Virus record (IMG/VR): IMGVR_UViG_3300021399_004696
DNA from: an uncultured virus (IMG/VR IMGVR_UViG_3300021399_004696)
Taxonomy: Duplodnaviria; Heunggongvirae; Uroviricota; Caudoviricetes
Length of the DNA: 63,371 nt
Strand: one strand, 5' to 3'
A program made the position numbers and the translations under genes. The notes beneath the pieces are model-generated. The model was given only the letters and a program-made list of their open reading frames with translations. It searched no databases and was not told where the DNA came from. Positions 1,029 through 57,840 of the stretch are shown here, piece after piece. Every line of letters begins with the position of its first letter. Position 1 is the stretch's first letter.

Positions 1029-1059
1029 CCGGGCGCTTTTATATTGTCATTTATATATT
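1029..1059 (+). promoter_or_regulatory. CCGGG-N20-TATATT element promoter
   Basis: Member of the recurrent fixed-spacing motif. Confidence 0.55.
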
Positions 1060-1084
1060 GAGATCAAGAAAGGACGGTGTAACA

Positions 1085-1330
1085 ATGTTACAAACACTGA
1101 AAAATATATCATATGAGCGGTTCGGTTCCAATTTAAGACAGGCTTTGGCCAACAACAAAATGTCTGACGAAGATTTCGGAAGATATGTTTTTGATCGCTT
1201 ATATTTTGCCAACGATAAGAAAATATTGGCAGCTAGAAAAGAAATGGTAGAGAGGATGTGTGGGGTGTCCGTCGCAGAAATGGCCGACAAGTCCCGCAGG
1301 ACAGATTTGAATGCTTCGGAAATATCGTGA
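1085..1330 (+). CDS. hypothetical protein
   Basis: ORF with RBS-like AAGGACGG upstream of ATG 1085. Confidence 0.6.
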   Translation: MLQTLKNISYERFGSNLRQALANNKMSDEDFGRYVFDRLYFANDKKILAARKEMVERMCGVSVAEMADKSRRTDLNASEIS

Positions 1331-1331
1331 C

Positions 1332-1805
1332 ATGGGTCTGGATGTCCAGGACATCATATTGACCATTATAGAAAAAGAAACAGACAGAGAGTTGTCGTAC
1401 GAGGAGGTTGTCAGCTTTTTACAGGATCAAGCAGATATTTTTTCTTTAGAATTAATAGATGAATTAAGTAACAGTTCCAATTCAAAAGTGAAAAAACTGG
1501 CCACAAAATGGCAAACAGTTTATAAGCAGATCGTTCGTGTGACGCCTGCTGTTTTTATTGCACGGATTTGGGGTTTGGCTTTGGGGCTTAATTATGAGTC
1601 TTACGAAGAAGAATGCTTGTTTTGTGACCTGGTAGGATATTTGATCTATGAAACTTTATTCCAAAACGGTTATGTTTCAGGAAATCTGCACCAAATAACA
1701 CCTCCGACAGCTAAAGATGAGAGACGCGACATTCAGCTGAAAGTTTATCAAAGAGCTTTTGAAATAGGAAAGCAGATTAAAAGTTTAGAGGAGGTAATTC
1801 GATGA
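1332..1805 (+). CDS. hypothetical protein
   Basis: ORF coupled to dut. Confidence 0.65.
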   Translation: MGLDVQDIILTIIEKETDRELSYEEVVSFLQDQADIFSLELIDELSNSSNSKVKKLATKWQTVYKQIVRVTPAVFIARIWGLALGLNYESYEEECLFCDLVGYLIYETLFQNGYVSGNLHQITPPTAKDERRDIQLKVYQRAFEIGKQIKSLEEVIR

Positions 1806-2242
1806 AAATCAAAAAATTGGCCCCGGATGCGAAGATTCCGGTAAAAGCTACCAGCAGCGCGGCAGGAGTGGATCTGTGTGCATATCTTCCCGAATACGGA
1901 GATAAGGATATTGATATCGAAAGCCATCAAACCATTAAAGTCCCGACCGGGATTGCAGTTGCCATACCGGAAGGCTATGTAGGGCTTATTTTTGCAAGAT
2001 CCGGAACAGCAACTAAAAAAGACCTGGCTCCGGCAAATAAGGTTGGTGTTATCGATTCTGATTACAGAGGTGAACTTATAGTAGCCTTGCACAACCACGG
2101 CAGACGTACACAGAGCTTTAAACATGGTGATCGTATTGCTCAGCTCGTAGTAGTACCCTGTTTGGATTATGAGTTTGAAGAGGTCGATGAGCTTCCTGCA
2201 ACGAACAGAGGAGAAGGGGGGTTCGGTTCCACAGGAGCCTGA
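1802..2242 (+). CDS. dut: trimeric dUTPase
   Basis: AAGVDL, ARSG, GVIDSDYRGE, DRIAQL, RGEGGFGSTG motifs. Confidence 0.96.
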   Translation: MKIKKLAPDAKIPVKATSSAAGVDLCAYLPEYGDKDIDIESHQTIKVPTGIAVAIPEGYVGLIFARSGTATKKDLAPANKVGVIDSDYRGELIVALHNHGRRTQSFKHGDRIAQLVVVPCLDYEFEEVDELPATNRGEGGFGSTGA

Positions 2243-2247
2243 TATAA

Positions 2248-3364: not shown

Positions 3365-3404
3365 GAAAGAAGCAATAATATAAATGTAAAGCTCGGATAT
3401 CATT

Positions 3405-3435
3405 CCGGGCTTTTTTGTATTTTGCGGGCTAGAAT
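3405..3435 (+). promoter_or_regulatory. CCGGG-N20-TAGAAT element promoter
   Basis: Recurrent fixed-spacing motif upstream of RBS AAGGAGG. Confidence 0.65.
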
Positions 3436-3461
3436 CATAAAAATGAAGGAGGTTAGCAACT

Positions 3462-4022
3462 ATGGAACACAAAACACTTAGAAAAGAGATTTTGGAAGTT
3501 ACAGCCCCCAAGCAGCTGATCGTAGGAGACCCTATGTATTTTGATGACGGTTTGGAAGCTAAGCTTTGTTATGTTAATAACAAGCTCCCTAAGGATGCTT
3601 TTGCAGAACTTATTCTCGAAGAGGTTGAATGTTCGTCTAAGATGTTTGGGGATGAAAAAATGACTTTTTCTATGATCGAAGCCTCTTTAATCGTTAGAAA
3701 AAGATCCGTTCAAGGAATCAAGATTCAGGGGGCGCATGAAGAAGGATGTCATATACCTACTTTGGAAAAGGGGGAACAGGTTCTTGGTTGCGATACAGCT
3801 TCATTCGAACTTAATGGTGATGTTTTTCATATCGGCGGTGATGGAGCTTACGGATCTGTTACGGAATATAAGAATAACGAAGCTGTTATTTTAAGCGTGG
3901 CATTCCCGAGCGATCTGTTTGATTTTGATGAGATCAAAAACAGGCTGTCTTCTAACTTTGGGCCTGTCTTGGCAGAAAGAACGATCGTAGAAGCAGTTCC
4001 TGATGTTGATAGGAATCTATAA
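3462..4022 (+). CDS. hypothetical protein (C-terminus DRNL)
   Basis: ORF with strong RBS. Confidence 0.75.
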   Translation: MEHKTLRKEILEVTAPKQLIVGDPMYFDDGLEAKLCYVNNKLPKDAFAELILEEVECSSKMFGDEKMTFSMIEASLIVRKRSVQGIKIQGAHEEGCHIPTLEKGEQVLGCDTASFELNGDVFHIGGDGAYGSVTEYKNNEAVILSVAFPSDLFDFDEIKNRLSSNFGPVLAERTIVEAVPDVDRNL

Positions 4023-5138: not shown

Positions 5139-5141
5139 ATG

Positions 5142-5172
5142 CCGGGACTTTGGTTTCGTTAGTCTTTACAAT
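5142..5172 (+). promoter_or_regulatory. CCGGG-N20-TACAAT element promoter (ssb, possibly read through into the TnpB-CRISPR locus)
   Basis: Recurrent fixed-spacing motif. Confidence 0.65.
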
Positions 5173-5204
5173 TAAACCATAGATAAAACTTAGGAGGTAA
5201 TTCC

Positions 5205-5654
5205 ATGAACAGAGTAATCATTTCAGGCAGGCTTACAAAGGAACCCGAATTAAAGCAGGTGGGAGATGTCTCCAACTGTTCGTTCGCAGTTGCTGTAGAT
5301 CGTAAGTATAAGAACAAGGATGGCGTAAGAGAAGCGGATTTCTTTAACTGTGTTGCCTGGCGTTATCAGGCAGACTTCCTGGCCAGGTATTTCCATAAGG
5401 GCAGCAAGCTCATGCTTGAAGGTACGCTTCAGAGCAGATCTTATGAGAAGAACGGCCAGACAGTGTATGTCACTGAGATTGTAGCAGAACATATCGAGTT
5501 TGCCGAGTCCGCGCCTCAGAAGACAGTAGCAAGCACAGCTCCTACGGCCCCCGCAACGGCTCCGGCAGAAGCACCTGCAGTTCCTGCAGCTCCGGCACCC
5601 GTAGATGCTCCTCCTGAAGAGTTTGGCGCAGAGGATCTGCCTTTCGAACTTTAA
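5205..5654 (+). CDS. ssb: single-stranded DNA-binding protein
   Basis: MNRVIISGRLTKEPEL, ADFFNCVAW, Pro/Ala-rich linker, acidic DLPF tail. Confidence 0.95.
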   Translation: MNRVIISGRLTKEPELKQVGDVSNCSFAVAVDRKYKNKDGVREADFFNCVAWRYQADFLARYFHKGSKLMLEGTLQSRSYEKNGQTVYVTEIVAEHIEFAESAPQKTVASTAPTAPATAPAEAPAVPAAPAPVDAPPEEFGAEDLPFEL

Positions 5655-5739
5655 TAGACCACAATAACCAACGCCTCTAAATTGGGTGATATCATATTTT
5701 ACTCCATTTCCCATGGAAATTGAATTGCGGGGCTTAATT

Positions 5740-6948
5740 ATGATCAGAGCTTATAAGTACAGGATTTATCCTACAGAAGAGCAAGCAAAGCAGATTCGTA
5801 GTAATTGCGGGGCTGCGAGATTTGTATATAATTACGCGCTCGGCTATTTTCTTGAACAACGCAAGAAGGCCGAGGAAAGTAACGGCGAAAAGATATTTTA
5901 TAATAAGTATGAAATGTCAAGGGTCGTTCGTGCCTTAAAGACTTTCACAGACGAAGAAGGGAATCAGCCCTATGCTTGGCTTAACACTATAGATTCTATC
6001 CTGGTCAATTATGCTCTAGGAGATCTTGAGGCCGCATTTAAGAATATCTCTAAAAACGGTGCGGGCTTCCCGAACTTTAAGCGTAAGGGCAACTCTGGCT
6101 CGTATCACACGCAGAATATCAATCACAACATTTGGGTGAACGACGGCTATATCAAGCTGCCGAAGATCGGTCCTATGAAGATTGTTCTCCACAGATCGTT
6201 AGACGGTATCATCAAGAGCGTTATCGTTTCTTACACGGCTTCGGGCAAGTATTACGTCGCTATATCTCAGGATATCCCGGATGAGAAGATACTCGGTACA
6301 AATGCCGGAGGAGAAGTCGGCATAGATGTCGGGATCAAGGAATTCTACTCTGACAGTAACGGCAATGTTGTAGCCAACCCTAAGTTCCTGTCAAAGTCTG
6401 AAAAGAAACTTAAGAAGGAACAACGCAGACTTTCTAAGATGATCGAGAGTCATATTGTTGAATACAGGACCATAGGCGGTAAGCGCTATCCCGTTTATGA
6501 CAAGCCGATTAGCGAGTGCAAGAATATTCAAAAGCAACGTATCAAGCTTGCAAAGATCCACGAGCATATCTCAGCTCAGCGTGAATACCTGCATGATGTC
6601 GAAAGCGCGAAGATTGCCTCTGAAAATGCTCTGGTTTGCATGGAAGACCTCAAGATACAGAACATGCAAAAGAACCATAAGCTCGCAAAGTCAATTGCGG
6701 ATGCCGGCTGGTACAGTTTTAAGTCTAAGGTGGCTTACAAGGTGAAGGATCACGGCGGAGTCCTGGTTTCTGTCGAGACTTTCTTCCCGTCATCCCAGAC
6801 CTGTTCCTGCTGCGGATACCGGAACAAGGGTACCAAGGACTTAAGCGTCCGCAAGTGGACCTGTCCCGAGTGTGGCACGGAACACGACAGAGATGTTAAT
6901 GCCGGAAAGAACATCCTTGCCAGAGGTAAGGAAATATTAAGTGCCTGA
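5740..6948 (+). CDS. tnpB: CRISPR-associated TnpB-family RuvC nuclease, 402 aa (candidate miniature type V effector)
   Basis: AYKYRIYPT N-terminus; RuvC-I GIDVG, RuvC-II MEDL, zinc finger CSCC..CPEC, RuvC-III HDRDVNA; no adjacent tnpA; CRISPR array 145 bp downstream. Confidence 0.9.
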   Translation: MIRAYKYRIYPTEEQAKQIRSNCGAARFVYNYALGYFLEQRKKAEESNGEKIFYNKYEMSRVVRALKTFTDEEGNQPYAWLNTIDSILVNYALGDLEAAFKNISKNGAGFPNFKRKGNSGSYHTQNINHNIWVNDGYIKLPKIGPMKIVLHRSLDGIIKSVIVSYTASGKYYVAISQDIPDEKILGTNAGGEVGIDVGIKEFYSDSNGNVVANPKFLSKSEKKLKKEQRRLSKMIESHIVEYRTIGGKRYPVYDKPISECKNIQKQRIKLAKIHEHISAQREYLHDVESAKIASENALVCMEDLKIQNMQKNHKLAKSIADAGWYSFKSKVAYKVKDHGGVLVSVETFFPSSQTCSCCGYRNKGTKDLSVRKWTCPECGTEHDRDVNAGKNILARGKEILSA

Positions 6949-7758: not shown

Positions 7759-7799
7759 ACGTAATCAAGTTCAAGTGGGACACACAGAAAAGCAAACTC

Positions 7800-7830
7800 C
7801 CGGGTGTTTGTGTCCCAAAAATTATAAAAT
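7800..7830 (+). promoter_or_regulatory. CCGGG-N20-TAAAAT element promoter
   Basis: Recurrent fixed-spacing motif. Confidence 0.6.
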
Positions 7831-7867
7831 AATCGTGACGATAGAACACAGAAAAGGAGGGGCGTTT

Positions 7868-8164
7868 ATGTCAAATCAGGATAACACAACGAGCTTGAAA
7901 GTGCTTGGTGGTTCTTTCAGGGCAGAGGTTAATCAGGGAGCAGGGGAGATAGGCATATATTTCAGGACTCAGACCGGTGAAGAGATTGACATCTGCAATA
8001 TTGTTCTAAAGGATAAGTTCGGAAACTATCTGGAGAACAGTTCTAATAAGGTCGCTGCTACCGCGTCAGTATACGTCTTCTCAGATCCTTACAACGAAGA
8101 CTATACGCACAAGGTTAATATTTCGATCAACGAGATAATCAAAGCCGTTACGACCGTAGTATAA
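7868..8164 (+). CDS. hypothetical protein
   Basis: AAGGAGG RBS before ATG 7868. Confidence 0.7.
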   Translation: MSNQDNTTSLKVLGGSFRAEVNQGAGEIGIYFRTQTGEEIDICNIVLKDKFGNYLENSSNKVAATASVYVFSDPYNEDYTHKVNISINEIIKAVTTVV

Positions 8165-8211: not shown

Positions 8212-8532
8212 CTAATTCATCAGTTCAAGTACCTTCAAAGTCCGTTCTTGCTCATCTTCTGACATCTCGGATATTTTCTTTATCAAATTCCTATTCAGTT
8301 TAGATTTTGGAATCAGACCTGCCATTTCATCAAGGCTCACACCACATTTCTTCGCATAGACGATAAAGGTCTGGGCGTTACATTTGTGGACCCCACGCTC
8401 GACACTGCTGATATAGTTTTTGGTCAGTCCTGTCGCATCTGCTATCTCTTGCTGTGTCACCTTTGCTGATTCTCTGTAACGCTGAAGCATCTGTCCGAAC
8501 TGCAATGCTTCGGCATCAATCTTTTCTGCCAT
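8212..8532 (-). CDS. XRE-family HTH regulator (possible R-M controller)
   Basis: VTQQEIADATGLTKNYISSVERG helix-turn-helix; divergent from the MTase. Confidence 0.88.
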   Translation of the reverse strand: MAEKIDAEALQFGQMLQRYRESAKVTQQEIADATGLTKNYISSVERGVHKCNAQTFIVYAKKCGVSLDEMAGLIPKSKLNRNLIKKISEMSEDEQERTLKVLELMN

Positions 8533-8667
8533 CTTTTTGTATCCTATCTCACATATTTATAATTGGAAAATTTTATTTTTCATATATAACAGAGAGCATT
8601 ATAAAGGAATCGTGGTACTGCATGCAATAATTTGTGCAGAAAATACCATTTTAATGTTACTCAATAG

Positions 8668-8696
8668 TTGCATTTACAACATTATAGTAGTATAAT
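8668..8696 (+). promoter_or_regulatory. canonical sigmaA promoter of the MTase operon
   Basis: TTGCAT-17bp-TATAAT. Confidence 0.7.
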
Positions 8697-8814
8697 CACT
8701 AATGGATAGTGATACTATAGTGGTACTGATTTGTCTGTCAGGGGACAGGCGTATTTCTTTACCCTTGGAGTACCACTATACCGTTACTTTATAAGAAAGG
8801 ATGTAACAATAGAT

Positions 8815-9810
8815 ATGGCAGCAAATGCAAATTTACATAAAGCAAAGGATGCGAAGAACGACGAATTCTATACTCAGCTCACAGATGTCAGCAAAGAACT
8901 GATGCATTATAAACCGCATTTTAAGGATAAGATTGTTCTTTGTAACTGTGACGACCCCACTTGGTCTGCTTTTTGGAAATATTTTCATTTGAATTTTAGT
9001 CAGCTTGGTTTAAAGAAGCTGATTTCCACTCATTATGATAAGACAGAACCCACATACAAAATGGTATATGAGGGTGGAGATGACAATGATATTGAAGTAG
9101 GTGTAAAGACTCCGCTTGAGGGTAATGGTGATTTTAGGAATCAGGAGTGTCTTGACCTGTTGGACGAGGCAGATATTGTCGTGACGAACCCGCCGTTTAG
9201 TTTATTCCGTGAGTATGTGGCTGTGTTGATGGAACACGAAAAAAAGTTTCTAATTATCGGGAATATGAACGCTATCACCTATAGAGATTTCTTCCCGTTA
9301 TTATCCTCTAATAAAATTTGGGGTGGCTATGAATTTAATAAAACTATGGAATTTATAATGCCTGATGATTATGTGTTGAAAGGTAAGGCTTATGTTGATT
9401 CCGAAGGTCGTAAACATGGTTTTGTTCCTGCAATATGTTGGTACACAAACATGGATATTGCCAAAAGGCATGAAAAAATAGTTTTATGGAAACACTACAC
9501 ACCTGACGAATATCCGCATTATGAAAATTATGATGCGATAGAGGTTAATAAAACCGCAGAAATACCTGTAGATTATGATGGTATCATGGGTGTTCCTATT
9601 ACATTTTTGGGAGCGTATAATCCTGAACAGTTTGAGATTGTGGGTATGGCACATGGAGACGCTGGGGTAGCATTAGGATTAAAACCTTATCCTCGTGAAT
9701 TAAAAAAATTGAACAAAGGAATGAGAGATGGCGATTTGTATTATATGGAAAATGGTATTCCTGTTCTTCCTTATAGGCGTATCCTTATTCGCAAAAAGAA
9801 AGGATGGTAA
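8815..9810 (+). CDS. adenine-specific DNA methyltransferase, EcoRI family
   Basis: AKNDEFYT, LCNCDDP, GDFR, VVTNPPFS, MGVPITF motifs. Confidence 0.9.
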   Translation: MAANANLHKAKDAKNDEFYTQLTDVSKELMHYKPHFKDKIVLCNCDDPTWSAFWKYFHLNFSQLGLKKLISTHYDKTEPTYKMVYEGGDDNDIEVGVKTPLEGNGDFRNQECLDLLDEADIVVTNPPFSLFREYVAVLMEHEKKFLIIGNMNAITYRDFFPLLSSNKIWGGYEFNKTMEFIMPDDYVLKGKAYVDSEGRKHGFVPAICWYTNMDIAKRHEKIVLWKHYTPDEYPHYENYDAIEVNKTAEIPVDYDGIMGVPITFLGAYNPEQFEIVGMAHGDAGVALGLKPYPRELKKLNKGMRDGDLYYMENGIPVLPYRRILIRKKKGW

Positions 9811-9816
9811 GTAATT

Positions 9817-10962
9817 ATGCAAATCACAGAAACAAAAATTAAAGTATCCGAACTCTGTCAGGGTTATACTGACGATGGTGATGGTGGTGTATATGGTTAT
9901 GATGATGGTAATCATAAGCTGACCATCAGACCTGCGTTTCAGAGAGAGTTTGTGTATAAGGACAAGCAGCGTGATGCTGTTATTGAAACTGTTCGTAAAG
10001 GTTATCCTTTGAATGTAATGTACTGGTCAAAGGTAACTGATACAGAGTTCGAGGTTCTTGATGGGCAGCAGAGAACTATTTCTCTTGGTCAATATCTCAA
10101 CGGAGATTTTGCTATCAAGATAAACGGTAATGATAAGTTCTATCATAATCTTACTGATACTGAAAAGCAGCAGATCAAAGATTATGAGCTGACTATTTAT
10201 ATCTGTGATGGCACAGAAGAAGAAAAACTCGAATGGTTCAAAGTCATCAATATTGCAGGCGAGACTCTTACCAATCAGGAACTTTTGAACGCCACCTACG
10301 CAGGAACATGGCTTGCCGATGCAAAGAATTTCTTCTCCAAGCGTAACTGCGTGGCAGGACAGTTTGCAGCCGGCTACATTAAGGGTAATCCTATCAGACA
10401 GGATTATCTTGAAAAGGCTCTTGCTTGGATTGCAGACCGTGACGGTCTTGAATCGGGCGGCACGTATATGGCTATCCATCAGCACGATGCAGACGCAAAT
10501 GACCTTTGGGTTTACTTTCAGGAAGTTATCGGTTGGGCGAAGCGTATGTTCCCGAACATGAGCAAGAAACTTACCGAGTGTCAGGACTGGGGAATCCTTT
10601 ATAACAAGTATCGTAACAAGCAGTACAACACCAACGAGATGCGTACTCTGATTGACAGGCTTCTTCAGGACGAGGATGTTACAAAGCAGACAGGTATCAT
10701 TCCTTATGTTCTCTCCGACAGACAGAAGCATGACGAGAAGTATCTTTCAATCCGTGCCTTCTCTGAACAGATTAAGCGTAGAGTTTATGAGCGTCAGGGT
10801 CACAAGTGTCCGTTCTGCGTAGCAAATGGTGTTGATACTGAATATGCCTTTGGGGAAATGCAGGGCGACCATATCATTCCTTGGTCACAGGGCGGTAGAA
10901 CAGTTGAAGATAACTGTCAGATGCTTTGTCAGAGGTGTAATAACGATAAGTCTGCACAGTGA
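9817..10962 (+). CDS. DUF262 (GmrSD-like) plus C-terminal HNH endonuclease
   Basis: RPAFQREFVY, DGQQRT; C-terminal CPFC..GDHIIPWSQGG..NCQMLCQRCN. Confidence 0.87.
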   Translation: MQITETKIKVSELCQGYTDDGDGGVYGYDDGNHKLTIRPAFQREFVYKDKQRDAVIETVRKGYPLNVMYWSKVTDTEFEVLDGQQRTISLGQYLNGDFAIKINGNDKFYHNLTDTEKQQIKDYELTIYICDGTEEEKLEWFKVINIAGETLTNQELLNATYAGTWLADAKNFFSKRNCVAGQFAAGYIKGNPIRQDYLEKALAWIADRDGLESGGTYMAIHQHDADANDLWVYFQEVIGWAKRMFPNMSKKLTECQDWGILYNKYRNKQYNTNEMRTLIDRLLQDEDVTKQTGIIPYVLSDRQKHDEKYLSIRAFSEQIKRRVYERQGHKCPFCVANGVDTEYAFGEMQGDHIIPWSQGGRTVEDNCQMLCQRCNNDKSAQ

Positions 10963-12373: not shown

Positions 12374-12405
12374 AGTTGAAAAATCTTTATATACAGCGTG
12401 TTTTG

Positions 12406-12436
12406 CCGGGTGTTTATCCTCTGTTCCGGCTACAAT
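12406..12436 (+). promoter_or_regulatory. CCGGG-N20-TACAAT element promoter (dnaN)
   Basis: Recurrent fixed-spacing motif. Confidence 0.65.
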
Positions 12437-12477
12437 AAAGCTACATTAAATCTTAAGCAACAAAGGAGAAAAAGAAG

Positions 12478-13642: not shown

Positions 13643-13651
13643 ATTAGGTTT

Positions 13652-13682
13652 CCGGGCGTTTTTATCTCGAAAATGCGATAAT
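13652..13682 (+). promoter_or_regulatory. CCGGG-N20-GATAAT element promoter
   Basis: Recurrent fixed-spacing motif. Confidence 0.7.
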
Positions 13683-13713
13683 TTATGTATCAAAGAGAAA
13701 GAGAGAAAAGAGT

Positions 13714-15006: not shown

Positions 15007-15064
15007 TCGTACTAAAAACAAAAAGGGGAGAGGGGCCTGTTAAGGCCCGGATCTTCCTGGTTTT

Positions 15065-15095
15065 CCGGGCTTTCAGGCCTTAAAAATAAGATAAT
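15065..15095 (+). promoter_or_regulatory. CCGGG-N20-GATAAT element promoter
   Basis: Recurrent fixed-spacing motif. Confidence 0.7.
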
Positions 15096-15127
15096 ATAAG
15101 TATCAAATAAGAGAGGAGATTTCCCCA

Positions 15128-15361: not shown

Positions 15362-15592
15362 CAGTAATAGAATATTCAAGGTCGCCCAAACCACATAAAA
15401 ATATTAGAAAGTACCTTATAGGCGATTTGCAACCGGGTGATCTTGCGTATTATAAAAACCAACTGCAGAAAGGAGAAGTTTTTACAAATCAATATCAGAT
15501 TCAGACGGCTCTTTGGATAAGGGCCGTCATTTTTGTCTGTAAAACAACCCTTTAAGACCCCTTCAACTTTTCTTTTTTCAGCATCGTTTTTG

Positions 15593-15623
15593 CCGGGTGT
15601 TTTCCTTTTTGCAATGCCATAAT
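15593..15623 (+). promoter_or_regulatory. CCGGG-N20-CATAAT element promoter
   Basis: Recurrent fixed-spacing motif. Confidence 0.7.
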
Positions 15624-15655
15624 AAACATATCGAATACGAAAGGAGCATTCCCAC

Positions 15656-16820: not shown

Positions 16821-16825
16821 ATATT

Positions 16826-16856
16826 CCGGGCGTTTTTTATCGGAAAATCCGATAAT
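16826..16856 (+). promoter_or_regulatory. CCGGG-N20-GATAAT element promoter
   Basis: Recurrent fixed-spacing motif. Confidence 0.7.
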
Positions 16857-16877
16857 AAAAGAGTAAGGAGAATATGT

Positions 16878-19480: not shown

Positions 19481-19529
19481 AATTTTCCGCAAACTCAATA
19501 ACTTCAGTATCTTCGGAGGGTGGCGTTTA

Positions 19530-19560
19530 CCGGGCGTCACCCCTTCTTTTTCTGTATCAT
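19530..19560 (+). promoter_or_regulatory. CCGGG-N20-TATCAT element promoter
   Basis: Recurrent fixed-spacing motif. Confidence 0.6.
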
Positions 19561-19597
19561 AGACTTATAGAAATAAGAGAAAGAGAGTGCCCTGAAG

Positions 19598-20242: not shown

Positions 20243-20272
20243 CTCCCTAAAAGGCTTGGAAACACTGGGTTT

Positions 20273-20303
20273 CCGGGCTTTTTAACTTCAAAGATGCGAT
20301 AAT
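20273..20303 (+). promoter_or_regulatory. CCGGG-N20-GATAAT element promoter
   Basis: Recurrent fixed-spacing motif. Confidence 0.7.
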
Positions 20304-20335
20304 CTAACTATCAAAGATGAAAGTGAGGAGCCTAT

Positions 20336-21759: not shown

Positions 21760-21795
21760 GTTAACAACAACTTTCAGTTTAGAAAGTACCCCATA

Positions 21796-21826
21796 CCGGG
21801 CTTTTCTCTTTGATTTTCAGTATCTT
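21796..21826 (+). promoter_or_regulatory. CCGGG-N20-TATCTT element promoter
   Basis: Recurrent fixed-spacing motif. Confidence 0.55.
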
Positions 21827-21851
21827 GATAGAAGAGAGGAGCCCGATTTTT

Positions 21852-23804: not shown

Positions 23805-23839
23805 AAAAGACCTCAAACCCCTGTGCCGGCGCGGTTTTA

Positions 23840-23897
23840 CCGGGCTTTCAACTCTTAAAAATGCGATAATCTAACTATCAAAAGAGGAAGAGAGGAT
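23840..23897 (+). promoter_or_regulatory. CCGGG-N20-GATAAT promoter plus conserved leader/RBS cassette
   Basis: Leader TAACTATCAAAAGAGGAAGAGAGGAT is shared with the 36674 and 38020 copies. Confidence 0.75.
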
Positions 23898-25477: not shown

Positions 25478-25503
25478 GATCTCCCTTGATGCAATATCGG
25501 CTT

Positions 25504-25534
25504 CCGGGCGTCTAATCGCTATAACTGGCATAAT
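25504..25534 (+). promoter_or_regulatory. CCGGG-N20-CATAAT element promoter
   Basis: Recurrent fixed-spacing motif. Confidence 0.65.
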
Positions 25535-25575
25535 ATAAGTATCTAAATAGTAAATAGGCATCTACAGAAGGGAGA

Positions 25576-26105: not shown

Positions 26106-26149
26106 CCGGTTCAATTCCTACACTTAATCCTTTTTTGTAACACATTTTA

Positions 26150-26180
26150 CCGGGCTTTCAACCCTGAAATTCCCGATAAT
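26150..26180 (+). promoter_or_regulatory. CCGGG-N20-GATAAT element promoter
   Basis: Recurrent fixed-spacing motif. Confidence 0.7.
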
Positions 26181-26207
26181 AAAGGAAAACAAGAGAGGAT
26201 TATTTTT

Positions 26208-29093: not shown

Positions 29094-29144
29094 GGCTAAA
29101 ACCCCGTATTTTCAAGGCTTTCCGGGTATTTGTAACACCAATTA

Positions 29145-29175
29145 CCGGGTTATTTAGGCTTATCCCTTTTATACT
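29145..29175 (+). promoter_or_regulatory. CCGGG-N20-TATACT element promoter
   Basis: Recurrent fixed-spacing motif; a second CCGGG at 29122. Confidence 0.65.
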
Positions 29176-29209
29176 ATAAGCACAAAGATAAACAAGGAGG
29201 ATAAGCCCT

Positions 29210-30049: not shown

Positions 30050-30058
30050 AAGACTATT

Positions 30059-30089
30059 CCGGGTTATCGGACGGGATAAAATATAGAAT
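30059..30089 (+). promoter_or_regulatory. CCGGG-N20-TAGAAT element promoter
   Basis: Recurrent fixed-spacing motif. Confidence 0.6.
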
Positions 30090-30123
30090 CAATATAGACT
30101 TAAATAAAGAGGAGTTAAGCGTC

Positions 30124-32187: not shown

Positions 32188-32191
32188 TCCA

Positions 32192-32222
32192 CCGGGCTTT
32201 TCTCTTTCTAACATGGGACAAT
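32192..32222 (+). promoter_or_regulatory. CCGGG-N20-GACAAT element promoter
   Basis: Recurrent fixed-spacing motif. Confidence 0.65.
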
Positions 32223-32254
32223 TAGAGTATCAAAAGAGAAAGAGAGGTCTTGAT

Positions 32255-34302: not shown

Positions 34303-34537
34303 CAAGTCCACTCCTGGCACCACAGGTTTATTGGAAGAGGGTCTTCATTACCGAAGGCTCTTTTTTGTTATTTCTAAAACATTCCTGTCTACCGGTCTTT
34401 TCGACCGGGGCTGTACAATAATGAATGCAGATAGATTTCAAAGATCCTTCCCCTGGATTTCGTGGGATTTTACCCAAGGTCAAGGAGCCTGAAACGCAGC
34501 TTCGCGTTTGTTTACAGTAAAGGAGATTTTTAATATC

Positions 34538-34957: not shown

Positions 34958-35040
34958 CCGCCACCCCTGAAACGCCCTGTACTGCTTGATCCGGCGCCCT
35001 CTTTTCTTTTTCAGAATCCTTTCTTTATTGACTCTTTTAA

Positions 35041-35071
35041 CCGGGTCTTTTACCCCGGATCGTGAGACAAT
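35041..35071 (+). promoter_or_regulatory. CCGGG-N20-GACAAT element promoter
   Basis: Recurrent fixed-spacing motif. Confidence 0.65.
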
Positions 35072-35101
35072 ATAAGTAACTTAGAAAGGAGCTTTTCTCT
35101 T

Positions 35102-36625: not shown

Positions 36626-36673
36626 TCCGTGCGGCACACCCAGTTAATTTCAAGGCTTTAACGTCCGGATCTC

Positions 36674-36736
36674 CCGGGCGTTCTTTTTTGTAAGATGAGA
36701 TAATTTAACTATCAAAAGAGGAAGAGAGGATCTTTT
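36674..36736 (+). promoter_or_regulatory. CCGGG-N20-GATAAT promoter plus conserved leader/RBS cassette
   Basis: GATAATTTAACTATCAAAAGAGGAAGAGAGGATCTTTT identical to the 38045 copy. Confidence 0.75.
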
Positions 36737-37974: not shown

Positions 37975-38019
37975 AGCAGTCGGAAACGTTGATTTTACGG
38001 GGTCGAACGCTCTTTCTTA

Positions 38020-38082
38020 CCGGGTGTTCGGCCCTTAAAAATGCGATAATTTAACTATCAAAAGAGGAAGAGAGGATCTTTT
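38020..38082 (+). promoter_or_regulatory. CCGGG-N20-GATAAT promoter plus conserved leader/RBS cassette
   Basis: Shared with the 23840 and 36674 copies. Confidence 0.75.
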
Positions 38083-38722: not shown

Positions 38723-38887
38723 CTTGAAACGCCGAATGAATTGAACCGAACGGGTTCGGAGGCACCTTACTTCCGGGCCCGTTTTTAGCGGCTGATCCGC
38801 AGCGTTTGAAACTACAAAAAAGACGATCTTTAGACCAATATCTTTAACCGGTAATTCCCGCTAAACCCCTGTGCCGGTGCGGTTTTG

Positions 38888-38918
38888 CCGGGCTTTGTTG
38901 TGCTGTTCTCTTTATAAT
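38888..38918 (+). promoter_or_regulatory. CCGGG-N20-TATAAT element promoter
   Basis: Recurrent fixed-spacing motif with perfect -10. Confidence 0.72.
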
Positions 38919-38951
38919 TAAAGTATAAAAATATATAAGGAGGGCGGAGCG

Positions 38952-45163: not shown

Positions 45164-45192
45164 TTGACAAGAACAAATGTACTTACTATAAT
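45164..45192 (+). promoter_or_regulatory. canonical sigmaA promoter with LexA/DinR-like box in the spacer
   Basis: TTGACA-17bp-TATAAT; GAACAAATGTAC at 45171-45182. Confidence 0.65.
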
Positions 45193-45269
45193 CCGGATAC
45201 ATACTACAGCTGACAAGGGGAAAGGAGGTTGTACACATGTATCCGTATTTTAATACGTCTTAGGTGTTA

Positions 45270-45300
45270 CCGGGCATTTTGTTTGTTTATGCAATAAATT
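45270..45300 (+). promoter_or_regulatory. CCGGG-N20-TAAATT element promoter
   Basis: Recurrent motif, weak -10. Confidence 0.45.
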
Positions 45301-45382
45301 ATTGGTATGAACAAACTGGGAAAGGATGCATTTCTTAATAATCGGCGATCGGCTACGCCTTTAAGAAATTAATTGTGGAACT

Positions 45383-46848: not shown

Positions 46849-47190
46849 ATGGACAGACTTAAGATTTCTATTACAGACGACCAGAGAAGTATAGTAGAGG
46901 CCAGATATAGCGAGTCCGAGTTGAATCAAGCTTTTTATGATGCAGGCTCCATTTTAGCGATCTTGATCAAAATGTGCGGTGTCATCTTAAAGGGCGGGGC
47001 AAAAGACCCTGACGCACTCACGCCCGAGGAGCAAAATGCGATCCTTTTAACCATCGTTTCTCAAGCTAATTACATTCTGGACATGTCTAAGATCACCGGG
47101 GATGAGCAGATCTCGGTTCAAGAGATTTCCATCCCTAAGGGCATTGTCGAACTCCTTAAAAACGGAGGTTTGCCCAATGACGATTCGTGA
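46849..47190 (+). CDS. hypothetical protein
   Basis: AAGGAG RBS. Confidence 0.62.
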   Translation: MDRLKISITDDQRSIVEARYSESELNQAFYDAGSILAILIKMCGVILKGGAKDPDALTPEEQNAILLTIVSQANYILDMSKITGDEQISVQEISIPKGIVELLKNGGLPNDDS

Positions 47191-47524
47191 CTATATCGTA
47201 AGTAAAGATCTGCTAAAGCACATGGCTCGGCAGAAAGCTTCATTCGGGGATAACGAATTGCTGACAAGGATCACTTTAATAGAAGATCACTGGAATGAAG
47301 CTTGTCAGTGCTTGACCGAGCCTGAGCGCATCATCATTCGCAAGATGACTAAACAGTTTGATCCGACGCACCCCGACAATGAGGCGATTGCAGCTGAAAT
47401 GGGGGTAGGTGTTCGATACGTACAAAAGCATCGGAAAAACGCCTATATAAAGATGACTACTTATTTGAATGATAACTATAAGACAGACTTGGAATTTGAG
47501 AGGGCATACAGTAAAAGGAGTTAA
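47177..47524 (+). CDS. sigma-70 region-4-like HTH protein (RinA/ArpU-like activator)
   Basis: LTEPERIII..NEAIAAEMGVGVRYVQKHRKNAYIKM. Confidence 0.65.
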   Translation: MTIRDYIVSKDLLKHMARQKASFGDNELLTRITLIEDHWNEACQCLTEPERIIIRKMTKQFDPTHPDNEAIAAEMGVGVRYVQKHRKNAYIKMTTYLNDNYKTDLEFERAYSKRS

Positions 47525-48011: not shown

Positions 48012-48026
48012 TCAAAAAAGAGTCCA

Positions 48027-48057
48027 CCGGGTATTTTTTGAGTCGCTTTCCCATAAT
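48027..48057 (+). promoter_or_regulatory. CCGGG-N20-CATAAT element promoter
   Basis: Recurrent fixed-spacing motif. Confidence 0.68.
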
Positions 48058-48073
48058 GTAAAGGAAAGGCAAG

Positions 48074-51197: not shown

Positions 51198-52097
51198 ATG
51201 GTTTTACGAGACATTATTAACGAAACTTATTCTTTAGCACGTAGCAAGTGCAACAAAGCTCATTTAAATCAAGAGGTCTTTGAAGGGAAGAAACTTATTT
51301 ATAAGTCTATCGATCCTTACGAAAAAACAGGTTCTCATGAAGGCTATATAGAGCTGTTATGGAGAACCTGTTATAACCTTCAGGCTTTTTGCGGGGTTAA
51401 TGATATTGTTTCCAAATATGAAGCTTTAAACGGCACGCCGTCGTTTGCTACCGTAGACAGCATGGTCGAAAAACTTGCCCGAGCCTGCATTGAAAAGGCC
51501 GGCGACAAAAACTACAGTGCTGCGGTAGCATTAGGGCCCATGATATACATGTCAGCTCAAGAGGCTGCACGAGATATGAATGCAACATCGGACTATTTTA
51601 ACCGTGCTTATAGGATGTATGAAAATCCTACTGCCATGTATTTTTTGACCAAGTCCAGTAATGATAAAGAGATCGGATATAAAAGGCTTTTGAAGACCAA
51701 CGATTTCATGGTTTTTATGGAGTGTTTTAAAGAGGCGGTAAGAAACAACTGTCTTCACAACGGGGTTGTTGACGAAAACGCTGTTTTTGGCTTTATTCAA
51801 GATAGTTTAGCCATTACGCAAAACACTATTCAGTCCTTGAATCTGCTGTTTCCGCCGTCTTTTAAAGAGTTCGATTCCGAAGATTTTTCTACTATGACTT
51901 CCGAAAGGTTTTTATCTCTTTTGGAAGATATTAACGACGCTTGTTGCACTATATCGACATTTACCTCTACGCCGCTTAAACAGGTCTGGCAGGAATTGGG
52001 TATGGCTACCGGGCTTTCAAACGAGTTCGTTCCGGGATTTATTTTCCCGGATGATGCAATATCAGTATTAGAGAACAATGACAGAATATCTTTATAA
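51198..52097 (+). CDS. hypothetical protein
   Basis: Long ORF with RBS. Confidence 0.72.
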   Translation: MVLRDIINETYSLARSKCNKAHLNQEVFEGKKLIYKSIDPYEKTGSHEGYIELLWRTCYNLQAFCGVNDIVSKYEALNGTPSFATVDSMVEKLARACIEKAGDKNYSAAVALGPMIYMSAQEAARDMNATSDYFNRAYRMYENPTAMYFLTKSSNDKEIGYKRLLKTNDFMVFMECFKEAVRNNCLHNGVVDENAVFGFIQDSLAITQNTIQSLNLLFPPSFKEFDSEDFSTMTSERFLSLLEDINDACCTISTFTSTPLKQVWQELGMATGLSNEFVPGFIFPDDAISVLENNDRISL

Positions 52098-55465: not shown

Positions 55466-56000
55466 CAAAGGTGTATTGGGGGTGAGTAATTGCCGAACAT
55501 CCGTACCCGAGATGCATTTTGTATCAGATACAGTGGTCAAGGAAAGCGCCAAGAAAGGTTTTCTTGTACAAAAAACAACCCGCATTTACGGCGTTAACGA
55601 AGAAAGTTATATTCATGATTTTCAGGAAGCCGTTCTATTGATCAAAGCTTATGACGATCTGGAAGTACCTCGAAAAGAATCCTATAAGTTCTGCGAGAGC
55701 GCCGACATCAAACCTTTTTTGGATGCGCTCCAAGGTGTTAACAGGATCTCTATCACTGATAAAGATTCATTAAGTGTTGTTACCTTGAACTACGATCTTG
55801 AAAACAGTGACGTGCTTCTCACTAAATACAACGTGTTTGAACTCAAAAAGGAGCTTTCCTACGACGATAAACAAAGATTATCGGAAGAGCTGAATGCTTC
55901 GCGTATGGGGGTAGATGCTTTGATTCCGGATATAGTTGAGAGCATAGCAGGGAAGACTTCGTTGCCCATTTTGCATAACAACAATTTAAACATAGGATGA
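55443..56000 (+). CDS. hypothetical protein
   Basis: AAGGAGG RBS. Confidence 0.68.
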   Translation: MKEGYIVNKGVLGVSNCRTSVPEMHFVSDTVVKESAKKGFLVQKTTRIYGVNEESYIHDFQEAVLLIKAYDDLEVPRKESYKFCESADIKPFLDALQGVNRISITDKDSLSVVTLNYDLENSDVLLTKYNVFELKKELSYDDKQRLSEELNASRMGVDALIPDIVESIAGKTSLPILHNNNLNIG

Positions 56001-56013
56001 GGAGGACAGATGT

Positions 56014-57060
56014 ATGTACAACAAAAGTAAATCGGGTTCAAAAGACACAAGATATGAAGATTTTCAGAAAAAGCTCGTACAGTATATAGTAGATAATCTG
56101 GATCAGGGCTTTTTGTGGAAGCCCGGATGGAACAGAGCCGACGGCGGCCTTAATCCGTACAGCTTAGTAAGAGGCACTGAATACTCTGGTCTAAACGCCA
56201 TGATGTTGTGGTGTGTTGCTGATGATAAGACATACTCTACTAACGGGTGGTTAACATTCAACGATGCAAAAAAGCTTGAAGGCAATGTTAAGAAGGGGGA
56301 ACACGGTGTTCCTTGTTTCAGAGCCATTTTTAAGCCTGTTGAAAGAGAGGTTTGTGACCTTTCAGGCAAGCCTATCAAGAACGAAGACGGCACTATCAAG
56401 ACTAAGAAGGTAAGTGAATTTAAAGGTATTAACTGGTTCACTTTGTTTAATTACGATCAGTGTGAAAATCTGCCTCCTTTGGATTCTTTTAAGACCTATA
56501 ATGAAAGAGTTTTTACCGCTGGCCAGATCCCTTCTGATGAATATATGGCTTTGACAGAAGAGTTGTGTTCACAGGCGTTTGTTCCTGTCAGATGGTATGG
56601 CAACAAGGCTTATTACAGACCTTCTACAGATACAGTTACCATTCCTGAGAAAGAACGCTGGGATTCAGGGCAACACGCTTTTTCAGTTGCTACACACGAG
56701 TTGTCTCATGCAAGCGGGCATGAATCTCGCCTGAATCGAGATACGTTGAACATGTTTGGAACAGAAGCATATGCGTTTGAAGAGCTGGTCGCAGAACTTT
56801 CAAGTTCGTTTATATGCGCTAAATATGGTGTTAACCGCGAGATCGAAGAATCTTCCGTAGCTTATATAAAGAGCTGGTCCAAGCGCATTAAAGACACTCC
56901 TGAGTTCTTTTTCAAAGAAGTCATGCCTTTGGCCAACGCAGCTTATAAATTTGTAGTTAGTGAATGCGGGATTGATGATCTGGCCAAAAAGCATATTGGA
57001 GACTTTTCTACTTTCAGTCCTGAAGAAAGCTCCATTGAAGAGGGGGTTCCCAGTTTATAA
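56014..57060 (+). CDS. ardC: antirestriction protein ArdC (ssDNA-binding plus zincin domain)
   Basis: YSGLN, WLTFN..VKKGEHG, LFNYDQ, AYYRPSTD, HELSHASGHESRLNR, YAFEELVAEL, YIKSW. Confidence 0.9.
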   Translation: MYNKSKSGSKDTRYEDFQKKLVQYIVDNLDQGFLWKPGWNRADGGLNPYSLVRGTEYSGLNAMMLWCVADDKTYSTNGWLTFNDAKKLEGNVKKGEHGVPCFRAIFKPVEREVCDLSGKPIKNEDGTIKTKKVSEFKGINWFTLFNYDQCENLPPLDSFKTYNERVFTAGQIPSDEYMALTEELCSQAFVPVRWYGNKAYYRPSTDTVTIPEKERWDSGQHAFSVATHELSHASGHESRLNRDTLNMFGTEAYAFEELVAELSSSFICAKYGVNREIEESSVAYIKSWSKRIKDTPEFFFKEVMPLANAAYKFVVSECGIDDLAKKHIGDFSTFSPEESSIEEGVPSL

Positions 57061-57072
57061 GGAGGTATTGAT

Positions 57073-57774
57073 ATGGGCGTAGGTAGTTTTGTTTTAGATT
57101 CCAACACGGATATGGATTATATAGACAAGGCGTTGAGAAAAGCGATTGCCAGCGGGGAACCTGACAAACAGTTGGAAGCTTTGTATTTTGCAAGATTTGC
57201 AAACGAAAACAAGATCTTTAAGATAGATGCTGATAACCTTTGTTTGAGCATCTTCAGGCACACTTCAAAATACGCCGAAAACGATTGGGCTAACCTTGCT
57301 AACGAGATGCATACTTTTGATTTTAGTGAGATAACTGCCAGAACCATAGGTTTAGGTTTAGTCGAGCACGCACCTGTTCATTCTCTGGCAAGCGGTAAAT
57401 GGTTGGCCAGCAGGGAAGTGGTAGCAAGTTTTACGGAAAAATGTGTAAATCCTGACGATCTGGGGTTGGTCATAACTAATGTTTATGTCACCCAGGATTC
57501 AAGAGGCGACATAGATCGACATATTTCATCCCGCATCAGATTGCTGTCCAACGCATTGTTAGGTATGAATGATGAAAAGAAAAAGCTGGCCTTAAAGAAG
57601 GACATCATGAAATATCAGCAGATCCAAAAGGATAATCTGACACGGATGCAAGAGGAAAATTTTGATTTCTTTGAAAATCACGTAGAAGCTCAGATGCAAA
57701 GCCAGTCGACTGGGCTTCCTTACGATAAAACTGTCGGGCATGAGCGTTACAGACGCGGTCCCAGAGGGGCTTAA
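57073..57774 (+). CDS. hypothetical protein
   Basis: AAGGAGG RBS. Confidence 0.72.
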   Translation: MGVGSFVLDSNTDMDYIDKALRKAIASGEPDKQLEALYFARFANENKIFKIDADNLCLSIFRHTSKYAENDWANLANEMHTFDFSEITARTIGLGLVEHAPVHSLASGKWLASREVVASFTEKCVNPDDLGLVITNVYVTQDSRGDIDRHISSRIRLLSNALLGMNDEKKKLALKKDIMKYQQIQKDNLTRMQEENFDFFENHVEAQMQSQSTGLPYDKTVGHERYRRGPRGA

Positions 57775-57809
57775 AGAAATCAGTACCAAATGTTAAGTAA
57801 CACCTTTTA

Positions 57810-57840
57810 CCGGGCTTTCGGTCACAAAATCCTCGATAAT
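57810..57840 (+). promoter_or_regulatory. CCGGG-N20-GATAAT element promoter
   Basis: Recurrent fixed-spacing motif. Confidence 0.7.

Follow-up and report, generated by a model that had tools for sequence, protein, structure and literature searches.

The middle promoters of phage T4, as described in PMC2988021, combine a stringent −10 element with an activator box in the place of the −35 element, and about half of them carry a TGn extension. Among the Ltr late activators of Gram-positive phages, as described in PMC3753634, LtrA belongs to the Sigma70_r4 family and is listed beside RinA and ArpU. Here we describe 25 sites that carry a CCGGG box at a fixed distance from a −10-like hexamer in a 63,371-nucleotide stretch of DNA from an uncultured Caudoviricetes virus (IMG/VR record IMGVR_UViG_3300021399_004696); the whole of this stretch is called the window below, and positions are counted from its first letter. 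An earlier note on this DNA had listed the sites and proposed a private regulon, in which a factor encoded by the element recognizes CCGGG near −35 while a σA-type region 2 reads the −10 element. That interpretation is right in outline and partly supported, and to it we add two candidate players, a SigA-like sigma gene (2 to 979) and an open reading frame (ORF) at 47177-47524. Probably some 25 genes or small operons of this large mobile element, which comes from an animal-gut bacterium, share one promoter type, and an element-encoded factor turns this cargo on.

CCGGG is present on the + strand at all 25 of the coordinates listed earlier, each time exactly 20 nucleotides (nt) ahead of a −10-like hexamer; sites are named here by the position of the first C of the box. 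Counted on both strands, CCGGG occurs 93 times in the window, against 55.0 ± 7.9 in 100 shuffles (shuffle maximum, 79). The pattern CCGGG-N20-[TGC]ANNNT has 26 matches on the + strand, namely, the 25 listed sites and one at 52032, and 3 on the − strand. At other spacings from 12 to 28, the + strand holds 0 to 6 such matches, except at a spacing of 22, where the 15 matches are read as an echo of these sites through their GATAAT and CATAAT hexamers. If the hexamer is narrowed to NA[TCG]AAT, 19 matches remain on the + strand at spacing 20 and 0 to 2 at other spacings, while the − strand has 0 to 1. An unbiased count of all 5-mers lying 14 to 27 nt upstream of every [TGC]A[TC]AAT ranked CCGGG at offset 20 first (n = 17). 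In a weight-matrix scan, the 25 sites score 15.9 to 48.0 bits; the matrix was trained on these same sites, which makes their own scores circular, and the informative part is the gap to other positions. The next positions on the + strand are 34392 (CCGGT; 15.3 bits), 52032 (9.8 bits), and 11238 (CCGAG; 7.7 bits), the remainder score at most 4.1 bits, and the − strand maximum is 9.5 bits. The motif is real and far beyond chance, with a density of about one site per 2.3 kb.

The sites share the consensus T-n-CCGGG-C-k-T-T-N16-(G/T/C)ATAAT, with a conserved T-A six nt 3′ of the hexamer. With offsets counted from the first C of CCGGG as 0 and columns counted over 26 sites, T stands at −2 in 23/26, C at +5 in 16/26 (T in 8/26), and T at +7 and +8 in 23/26 and 24/26, respectively. 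A spacer that is pyrimidine-rich and then A-rich, and little conserved in sequence, leads to the hexamer at +25 to +30. Its first base is G in 11, T in 11, and C in 4 of the 26 sites; T occupies position 3 in 17/26, and A occupies positions 4 and 5 in 23/26 and 22/26 (the search pattern itself fixes positions 2 and 6 as A and T, respectively). T at +36 (17/26) and A at +37 (22/26) follow, and this A, six nt past the hexamer, is predicted to be the σ70-type start point, with the usual pyrimidine ahead of it. The earlier note had placed the sites shortly before a ribosome-binding site (RBS); by script, an RBS-like motif and a start codon lie 10 to 35 nt past the predicted start at 21 of the 25 sites, most commonly at 26 nt, and the listed ATGs of sites 13652 and 19530 are 25 and 31 nt downstream.

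When the 25 sites are compared in pairs, mean identity is 0.72 for the box and 0.74 for the hexamer, against 0.32 for the spacer, 0.27 upstream, and 0.26 for random 20-mers. Because the spacers are near random, two blocks at a fixed distance appear to be under selection while the intervening DNA drifts. Five sites (20273, 23840, 32192, 36674, and 38020) share 72 to 86% identity across 64 nt and probably stem from recent duplication of a single cassette.

The downstream half of the sites has the TATAAT-like −10 hexamer of a σ70 group 1 promoter. In agreement with the earlier note, which had reported no TTGACA, the best match to a −35 box at 16 to 18 nt spacing reaches no more than 3/6 at all 25 sites. 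The TGn of an extended −10 element is found at 9 of the 14 sites with G or C as the first hexamer base and at none of the 11 with T there (Fisher p = 0.001, in a test that counts several sites related by descent); it is thus present at 9/25 sites and lacking at 16/25. A TG that stands in for a missing first T is the behavior of primary-type sigma regions 2.4 and 3.0, and this trade-off is taken as the best internal evidence that a σA-type factor reads the downstream half. Together, the −10 box, the TG, the T-A, the RBS and ATG about 26 nt on, the strict orientation, the hairpins upstream, and the lack of a canonical −35 box make the promoter reading well supported by geometry. From these features we infer that transcription very likely starts at the sites and that they function as promoters.

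The statement that the sites often lie just after a terminator holds for about half of them: a hairpin of −12 kcal/mol or stronger lies within −45 to +11 at 12 of the 25 sites, whereas 22% of 500 random windows have one (Mann-Whitney p = 0.008). CCGGG is the 3′ arm of the hairpin at nine sites and is not a hairpin arm at 14/25, and the −10 box is unpaired in every predicted hairpin. The interval 12001-32000, with 13 CCGGG sites, contains 25 terminator-like sites, against 16.0 ± 4.0 in shuffles; canonical σ70 promoter-like sites are not enriched there (30, against 37.3 ± 5.3).

Several other identities for the sites were tried and rejected. A pure terminator half was rejected because CCGGG is the 3′ arm at only nine sites, and an Frpo-like single-strand promoter was rejected because the −10 box is never paired. 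MerR-type promoters have long spacers, and this type was rejected because the spacer here is without a conserved dyad. The earlier note had also raised epigenetic control through CCGGG methylation. This idea finds no support here: the one methyltransferase that the scans revealed is of EcoRI type and acts on adenine, no cytosine-specific enzyme turned up, and CCGGG beyond the promoters is not depleted on the + strand, with 27 sites against an expectation of about 27.5 (half of the both-strand shuffle mean).

At its left end the window carries a SigA/RpoD-like sigma gene (2..979, + strand), which is truncated by the window start, encodes regions 1.2, 2, 3, and 4, and ends 49 nt ahead of the first CCGGG site. 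Region 1.1 is not part of the sequence at 2-979. The product aligns with Bacillus subtilis SigA at 4e-94, beginning at SigA residue 100, and keeps the SigA residues of regions 2.4, 3.0, and 4.2; its region 4.2 recognition helix, TRERVRQIEAKALRKL, equals that of B. subtilis SigA save for one conservative I-to-V change. The positions that we take to contact the −35 box were assigned from work on σ70 residues 573 to 593, and the recognition-helix columns do not vary among seven relatives, all of them without a CCGGG motif nearby. Because its residues in regions 2.4, 3.0, and 4.2 are canonical, this sigma would be able to read the −10 box and should read TTGACA, not CCGGG. The tail of the protein past RKL is altered (GKNSHARILQGF), while IMG/VR relatives with 49 to 51% identity retain an RHPSR-type tail. 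The C-terminal tail of σ70 is the region contacted by activators.

Our preferred reading, to which we give a probability of roughly 55%, is that a σA-type factor reads the −10 box and a positive factor encoded by the element acts at the CCGGG box. The 25 sites would then be one element-specific promoter family, each promoter made of three parts: T-n-CCGGG-C-k-T-T, the box of the −35 region, spanning about −39 to −29; 16 nt of spacer with no fixed sequence; and a near-consensus σA-type −10 box, (G/T/C)ATAAT, with the start at the conserved A six nt on, a leader of about 26 nt, and a strong RBS. A group 1-type sigma, either host SigA or the element's paralogue at 2..979, would read the −10 box, plus TG where present. 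The CCGGG box would lie beyond the reach of region 4 of such a sigma and would be read by an element-encoded factor at −35, placed in or against the polymerase. The asymmetry of the box and its strict orientation would favor a monomeric, polymerase-bound reader over a dimeric repressor. The set would drive many short, hairpin-separated units of establishment, anti-defense, and replication cargo, with dozens of small acidic proteins as well as SSB, ArdC, helicases, a DnaN-like clamp, and PcfJ-like and SprT-like proteins. The earlier note had compared such an arrangement with sigma appropriation by T4 MotA and AsiA; the comparison fits the geometry and the look of T4 middle promoters, but no MotA- or AsiA-family match was returned by Pfam scans of 95 and 74 ORFs, which are fast-evolving, so that distant analogues could escape.

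A candidate for the box reader is encoded at 47177..47524 (+ strand; RBS, GGAGG), an orphan basic protein of 115 amino acids (aa) with a putative sigma-70 region 4/LuxR-type helix-turn-helix (HTH). In the ESM Atlas, its 10 nearest structure rows all belong to sigma-70 r4, r4_2, ECF, or LuxR clusters (TM by query, 0.59 to 0.71; pTM of the Atlas's own model, 0.59), and its feature neighbors are viral proteins of about 100 aa, some of them in clusters with Sigma70_r4_2. Matches to PHROG sigma-factor families have E values of 0.012 and 0.035, and those to the Pfam families GerE and HTH_36 have E values of 0.044 and 0.0024. By hhalign, residues 39 to 93 lie gapless on region 4 of SigA-like sigmas (P = 0.0055 as a single comparison, with a probability of only 6.6%), pairing LTEPERIII with LSEREQIIL and VRYVQKHRKNAYIKM with the recognition helix. 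Each of these lines is weak; together they are a lead, not a finding, and we regard it as possible, though doubtful, that this protein is the positive factor at the box. The neighboring basic ORF (47469-48008; Atlas from residue 20) gave no usable Atlas match. FecR_C-like signals were seen for ORF 47526-48011 (structure row; TM by query, 0.31) and for 26892-27200 (Pfam E = 0.0053); they could hint at anti-sigma-like partners and are too weak to use.

The gene for the candidate reader overlaps the preceding ORF and abuts the next, within an ORF run that extends from 45383 to 48011. Upstream of this run stands a canonical promoter, TTGACA-N17-TATAAT (45164..45192, + strand), the sole perfect copy in the element part of the window. 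It is followed by an RBS and an 8-codon mini-ORF (45237-45263) and then by a weaker CCGGG promoter (45268..45307, + strand; TAAATT; 29.0 bits), whose leader to the SNF2-like gene 45383-46846 is 76 nt long. By analogy with sigN on plasmid pBS32, this layout is suggestive of a regulator that is primed by host polymerase and then activates itself: the 47177-47524 protein would first be made by host polymerase from the 45164 promoter and would then act back on site 45270, turning on the whole set. A more specific form of our preferred reading is a two-part private sigma, in which a SigA-type −10 reader is joined at 25 or more promoters by the free-standing, 115-aa, region 4-like protein in replacement of sigma region 4. 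We hold this form to be unlikely; if true, it would be a Gram-positive, HTH-based counterpart of T4 sigma appropriation that fires an establishment and anti-defense set at once. The spacer of the 45164 promoter also holds AGAACAAATGTACT, a sequence similar to the LexA/DinR box of Firmicutes, with GAAC-N4-GTAC as its half sites. The Firmicute LexA/DinR consensus is CGAACN4GTTCG, and SOS control or a leader peptide at 45164-45263 is possible.

A number of points weigh against the preferred reading and its candidate reader. Sequence alone cannot separate an activator from a repressor, and the zero-variance spacing, taken with five near-identical cassettes, implies that the regularity may partly be shared descent. 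The RNA data are sparse contigs from two runs in which 5′ ends are not shown; the 16 short, low-depth pieces listed, none of them across the box-to-hexamer stretch, are too thin to weigh either way. The window is about 63 kb of a larger element, and the true reader may lie outside it. No motif-bearing relative of the element was found in the collections named below. As for the 47177-47524 protein, Pfam returned no significant sigma (Sigma70_r4) match, BLASTP found no match to the element's own region 4, and a single-sequence AlphaFold model was poor (pLDDT, 45.5). No homologues were found in two large searches; a word-based search returned the protein itself alone, phmmer against 1.84 billion representatives gave four other matches, of 345 to 4076 aa and in several short stretches, which are taken as spurious, and phmmer against PDB sequences found nothing relevant.

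Of the alternatives, the one that survives best, which we nevertheless judge improbable, is that the box is the operator of an element-encoded repressor and that −35-independent σA promoters fire on entry and are later shut (zygotic induction), as on plasmid p576. Plasmids of the pLS20 family have conserved regulatory sequences 5′ of several establishment operons, including ardC, and the ribbon-helix-helix repressor of p576 binds repeats beside the −35 box (as described in PMC8708921). Here, too, the genes are of a kind expected for establishment, with SSB, ArdC, a methyltransferase, and numerous small acidic proteins. The −10 boxes come close to the consensus, and nine of the 25 sites have TGn. 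However, the p576 promoters retain a canonical −35 box, and their operator is an adjacent direct heptamer repeat (PMC8708921), whereas the box described here is asymmetric, single-copy, and fixed to the −10 box to the base pair, a fixing that a repressor does not need. With no usable −35 box and no TGn at 16/25 sites, host polymerase alone should use the sites poorly. In addition, no ribbon-helix-helix or other repressor was detected near the sites, the sole clear HTH_3 gene being the one beside the restriction-modification (R-M) cassette.

Somewhat less probable again is that a complete alternative sigma, encoded by the host or in the approximately 135 kb of the element outside the window, uses the box as its −35 element and reads the −10 box as well. 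SPO1 gp28 and gp34 are a comparable case. A single polypeptide reading both boxes would suit the zero variance in spacing, and the window covers only part of the element, with about two thirds outside. The regulon of SigN on pBS32 is essentially restricted to the plasmid and has its own −35/−10 consensus, ending in GATATAAT (as described in PMC6751061). Against such a sigma, no second sigma was detected in the window at a Pfam E value of ≤0.05, and the TGn/first-base trade-off and the TATAAT-like hexamer indicate group 1-type regions 2.4 and 3.0. The box is also centered about 2 bp farther upstream than a normal −35 element, which would imply a spacer of 19 to 20 bp.

It is very unlikely that the SigA-like sigma (2..979) reads CCGGG directly through its region 4. 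It is the sole full sigma in the window, its gene lies immediately before the first site, and its C-terminal tail differs from those of SigA and its closest relatives. However, its recognition helix and LEEVG motif match SigA at all the presumed −35 contacts, and these positions do not vary in the seven relatives that are without a nearby CCGGG motif. Least likely of all, the sites would not primarily be promoters but recombination cassette boundaries (PeSL- or attC-like), terminator halves, or single-stranded DNA signals of a transferred strand, a view that can draw on the gene-shuffling terminator/promoter composites described for T4-like phages (PMC4122927; PMC2839356), on the stable hairpins at 12/25 sites with CCGGG as the 3′ arm at nine, and on the five cassettes alike over 64 nt, but that fails in that PeSLs are also promoters and so complement rather than replace the promoter reading, CCGGG is no hairpin arm at 14/25 sites, the −10 box is never paired, unlike in single-strand promoters, and recombination would leave the conserved start point, the spacing to the RBS, and the trade-off with TGn without a role.

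The putative promoters are given below from left to right, all on the + strand, with coordinates that run from the box to the predicted +1 and scores in weight-matrix bits. The first, 1027..1066 (TATATT; 25.7 bits), lies 5′ of ORF 1085-1330, and the second, 3403..3442 (TAGAAT; 27.1 bits), at which CCGGGC is the 3′ arm of a terminator-like hairpin, lies 5′ of ORF 3462-4022. The SSB gene (5205-5654) is preceded by 5140..5179 (TACAAT; 28.6 bits), ORF 7868-8164 by 7798..7837 (TAAAAT; 33.1 bits), and the dnaN-like gene 12478-13578 by 12404..12443 (TACAAT; 30.9 bits). Next come 13650..13689 (TGcGATAAT; 46.9 bits), with a strong hairpin just ahead (13602-13641) and a PcfJ-like gene (13714-15006) downstream; 15063..15102 (GATAAT; 45.3 bits), 5′ of ORF 15128-15361; 15591..15630 (TGcCATAAT; 38.8 bits), 5′ of ORF 15656-16660; and 16824..16863 (GATAAT; 37.0 bits), with an upstream hairpin at 16785-16817, 5′ of ORF 16878-17090. 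The SprT-like gene 19598-20242 has 19528..19567 (TATCAT; 24.8 bits) upstream, ORF 20336-20821 has 20271..20310 (TGcGATAAT; 46.2 bits), and the UvrD-like helicase gene 21852-23804 has 21794..21833 (TATCTT; 27.3 bits). The top score belongs to 23838..23877 (TGcGATAAT; 48.0 bits), 5′ of a PcfJ-like gene (23906-25435), after which 25502..25541 (TGgCATAAT; 38.2 bits) precedes ORF 25576-25878.

Farther to the right, 26148..26187 (GATAAT; 38.3 bits) lies 5′ of ORF 26208-26855 and 29143..29182 (TATACT; 29.5 bits) is followed by AGGAGG and the ATG of a short ORF; both have the heptamer GTAACAC 6 nt upstream of the box. ORF 30124-30522 follows 30057..30096 (TAGAAT; 18.0 bits), ORF 32255-32857 follows 32190..32229 (TGgGACAAT; 39.9 bits), and ORF 35102-35605 follows 35039..35078 (TGaGACAAT; 32.1 bits). 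An ORF of 43 aa (36739-36870) stands downstream of 36672..36711 (TGaGATAAT; 43.0 bits), ORF 38084-38722 downstream of 38018..38057 (TGcGATAAT; 47.1 bits), and ORF 38952-39200 downstream of 38886..38925 (TATAAT; 37.5 bits). Beyond the 45268..45307 promoter described above, the weakest of the listed promoters, 48025..48064 (CATAAT; 15.9 bits), lies 5′ of ORF 48074-48520. Between it and 57810 no site exceeds 9.8 bits, across genes that include those for an exonuclease, Mrr, a Toprim primase-like protein, and ArdC. The last promoter, 57808..57847 (GATAAT; 36.6 bits), again with GTAACAC 6 nt upstream, precedes ORF 57869-58261. The doubtful 26th match, 52030..52069 (CAATAT; 9.8 bits), falls within the end of ORF 51198-52097 and is probably a chance occurrence or a weak internal promoter, and the near miss at 34390..34429 (AATAAT after CCGGT; 15.3 bits) is possibly a decayed copy.

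GTAACAC itself has 10 copies on the + strand and one on the − strand, where 4.25 ± 2.1 would be expected for the two strands together; its positions include 17968, 20856, 42042, 26137, 29132, 57797, and 1006. In three CCGGG promoters (26150, 29145, and 57810) it stands exactly 6 nt 5′ of the box; at 17968, 20856, and 42042 it stands 29 to 30 nt 5′ of a −10-like hexamer that is followed by an RBS, without CCGGG. It may be a second upstream element or mark a second promoter class.

Small genes on the + strand follow one another through the window; their RBSs are strong and of Firmicute type, and judged from these the host type would be a Firmicute. In addition to the truncated SigA/RpoD-like sigma, the Pfam scans recognized a dUTPase, SSB, the DnaN-like clamp, two PcfJ-like proteins, and the SprT-like protein; DUF5688, DUF4313, and DUF3850/ASCH proteins; UvrD-like and SNF2-like helicases; an exonuclease, Mrr, a Toprim/DUF3991 primase-like protein, and ArdC; an EcoRI-type methyltransferase adjoining a GmrSD/HNH nuclease, with an HTH_3 gene alongside; two IS605-type insertions; and, on the − strand near the right end, an integrase. 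A PHROG scan of the window returned no family annotated as virion, packaging, or structural. Because a contig of 198,822 bases carries one of the element's proteins, the window makes up about one third of the whole element, which would be a large plasmid, an integrative element, or a temperate phage. Animal gut and rumen metagenome runs contain near-identical DNA, with five studies having shares of at least 0.21, one of which may be the source, and two sequencing runs compared with the window covered 30 and 29 of 30 bins, mostly at 95 to 99% identity. Across about 49 small ORFs (1085-58584), most of the unknown proteins are strongly acidic (pI 4.1 to 5.0), and only about nine are basic; such acidic small proteins would fit DNA-mimic or anti-defense cargo.

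The R-M-like cassette (8212-10962) consists of the HTH_3 gene on the − strand, the EcoRI-type adenine methyltransferase gene, and the GmrSD_N+HNH nuclease gene, and, as the earlier note had it, uses a promoter of another kind: a σA-like TTGCAT-N17-TATAAT lies upstream. The two IS200/IS605-type insertions are a TnpB gene alone (5686-6948) and a TnpA gene with a TnpB gene (61329-62859). No CCGGG motif was found in the TnpB insertion 5686-6948, again as reported earlier, and a perfect TTGACA-N17-TATAAT at 61258 lies 5′ of the IS200 transposase gene of the 61329-62859 insertion. Because canonical promoters stand at the insertion, at the R-M cassette, and at 45164, the CCGGG promoter type appears to be specific to the element's own cargo.

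The motif seems to be private to this element. The 13-base motif TNCCGGGNNTT-N17-ATAAT occurs 11 times in the window and 0 times in shuffles; in an even sample of 401 genomes from the class to which one Firmicute genome belongs, each genome has 0 to 3 copies. A stricter pattern of 18 bases, which occurs five times in the window, had 0 matches in IMG/VR viral contigs; 17 scattered single matches in 185,579 species genomes, about what our chance estimate gives; and 29 single matches in metagenome contigs, one of which is an identical 2.2-kb piece of this element. These counts suggest that the motif does not exceed chance in public collections. Megablast of 20 kb against phage and plasmid collections gave no match, and tblastn of a PcfJ-like protein against plasmids gave only distant matches (24 to 52% identity) in Clostridium, Clostridioides, Alicyclobacillus, Paenibacillus, and Ruminococcus. 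The IMG/VR loci that encode the 49 to 51%-identical sigma have neither the CCGGG motif nor another enriched upstream 5-mer, and ArdC and DnaN queries against IMG/VR returned no relative. We found no description of the motif in the literature on CCGGG promoters or sigma factors of conjugative elements or on intergenic promoter motifs of Butyrivibrio megaplasmids.

If the sites are promoters, they form one of the densest private promoter sets outside virulent phages, heading short insulated units that encode mostly unknown, very acidic proteins beside SSB, ArdC, and helicase genes. If the preferred reading is true, the motif would mark an early or establishment regulon and offer a direct route to candidate anti-defense genes, and it would supply a compact orthogonal promoter-factor pair for Firmicutes. 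The replacement of −35 recognition, so far worked out for T4, would then reach the mobile elements of anaerobic gut bacteria.

Among known systems, PeSL cassettes of T4-like phages are likewise short composites of hairpin and promoter that flank small variable genes (PMC4122927). Here the promoter is noncanonical, and a hairpin is found at only about half of the sites. The promoters of PeSLs are host-type early promoters. The Ltr proteins resemble the candidate reader in being small, phage-type, and of limited similarity to sigma region 4, and they activate element promoters, but as described in PMC3753634, they act at one late promoter 5′ of terS, whereas 25 sites here lie 5′ of nonstructural genes. 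The sites precede replication and anti-defense-type genes, in a window for which the PHROG scan gave no packaging or structural family, and the sequence searches do not establish that the candidate reader belongs to the LtrA family.

The establishment regulons of pLS20-family plasmids, EGeRS1 and EGeRS2/Reg (p576), come closer in genetic setting: a sequence is repeated 5′ of small variable establishment operons, including ardC, and readthrough from upstream is blocked (PMC8708921). The element described here has such a repeated sequence at 25 sites, with SSB, ArdC, and PcfJ among the genes served, compared with four to five copies each in that family (PMC8708921). The units themselves differ, in that EGeRS2 is a canonical σA promoter with repressor repeats and EGeRS1 is a promoterless structured region of 420 to 750 bp (PMC8708921), whereas the unit here is a 40-nt promoter without a −35 box. 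Of the features of EGeRS2/Reg, no canonical −35 box and no repeated heptamers were found in the consensus, and the ORF scans gave no ribbon-helix-helix match. The SigN system of pBS32 shares an element-restricted promoter set and, with the candidate reader taken as the regulator, a regulator gene with both a host SigA promoter and a promoter of its own class, which in the case of sigN is auto-activated; SigN is a complete divergent sigma with a normally spaced −35 box (PMC6751061), whereas the candidate reader here would be region 4 only. No complete divergent sigma is encoded in the window besides the canonical SigA-like gene, and the window covers only about one third of the element.

The T4 middle promoters under MotA/AsiA share most with the sites: a σ70-type −10 box, an element-specific box in place of the −35 element, a fraction of promoters with TGn, and dozens of copies (PMC2988021). 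In both, the box takes the −35 place and keeps a short, fixed distance to a −10 box of stringent match. The MotA box is centered at −30, 12 ± 1 bp from the −10 box (PMC2988021), whereas the box here would span about −39 to −29, with an invariant 16 bp from the last conserved T to the hexamer. MotA uses a double-wing domain, the candidate reader would use a sigma region 4-type HTH, and the host type here, judged from the RBSs, would be a Firmicute. By analogy, then, the closest working likeness of this promoter family is the T4 middle promoters, although it is not a member of that system.

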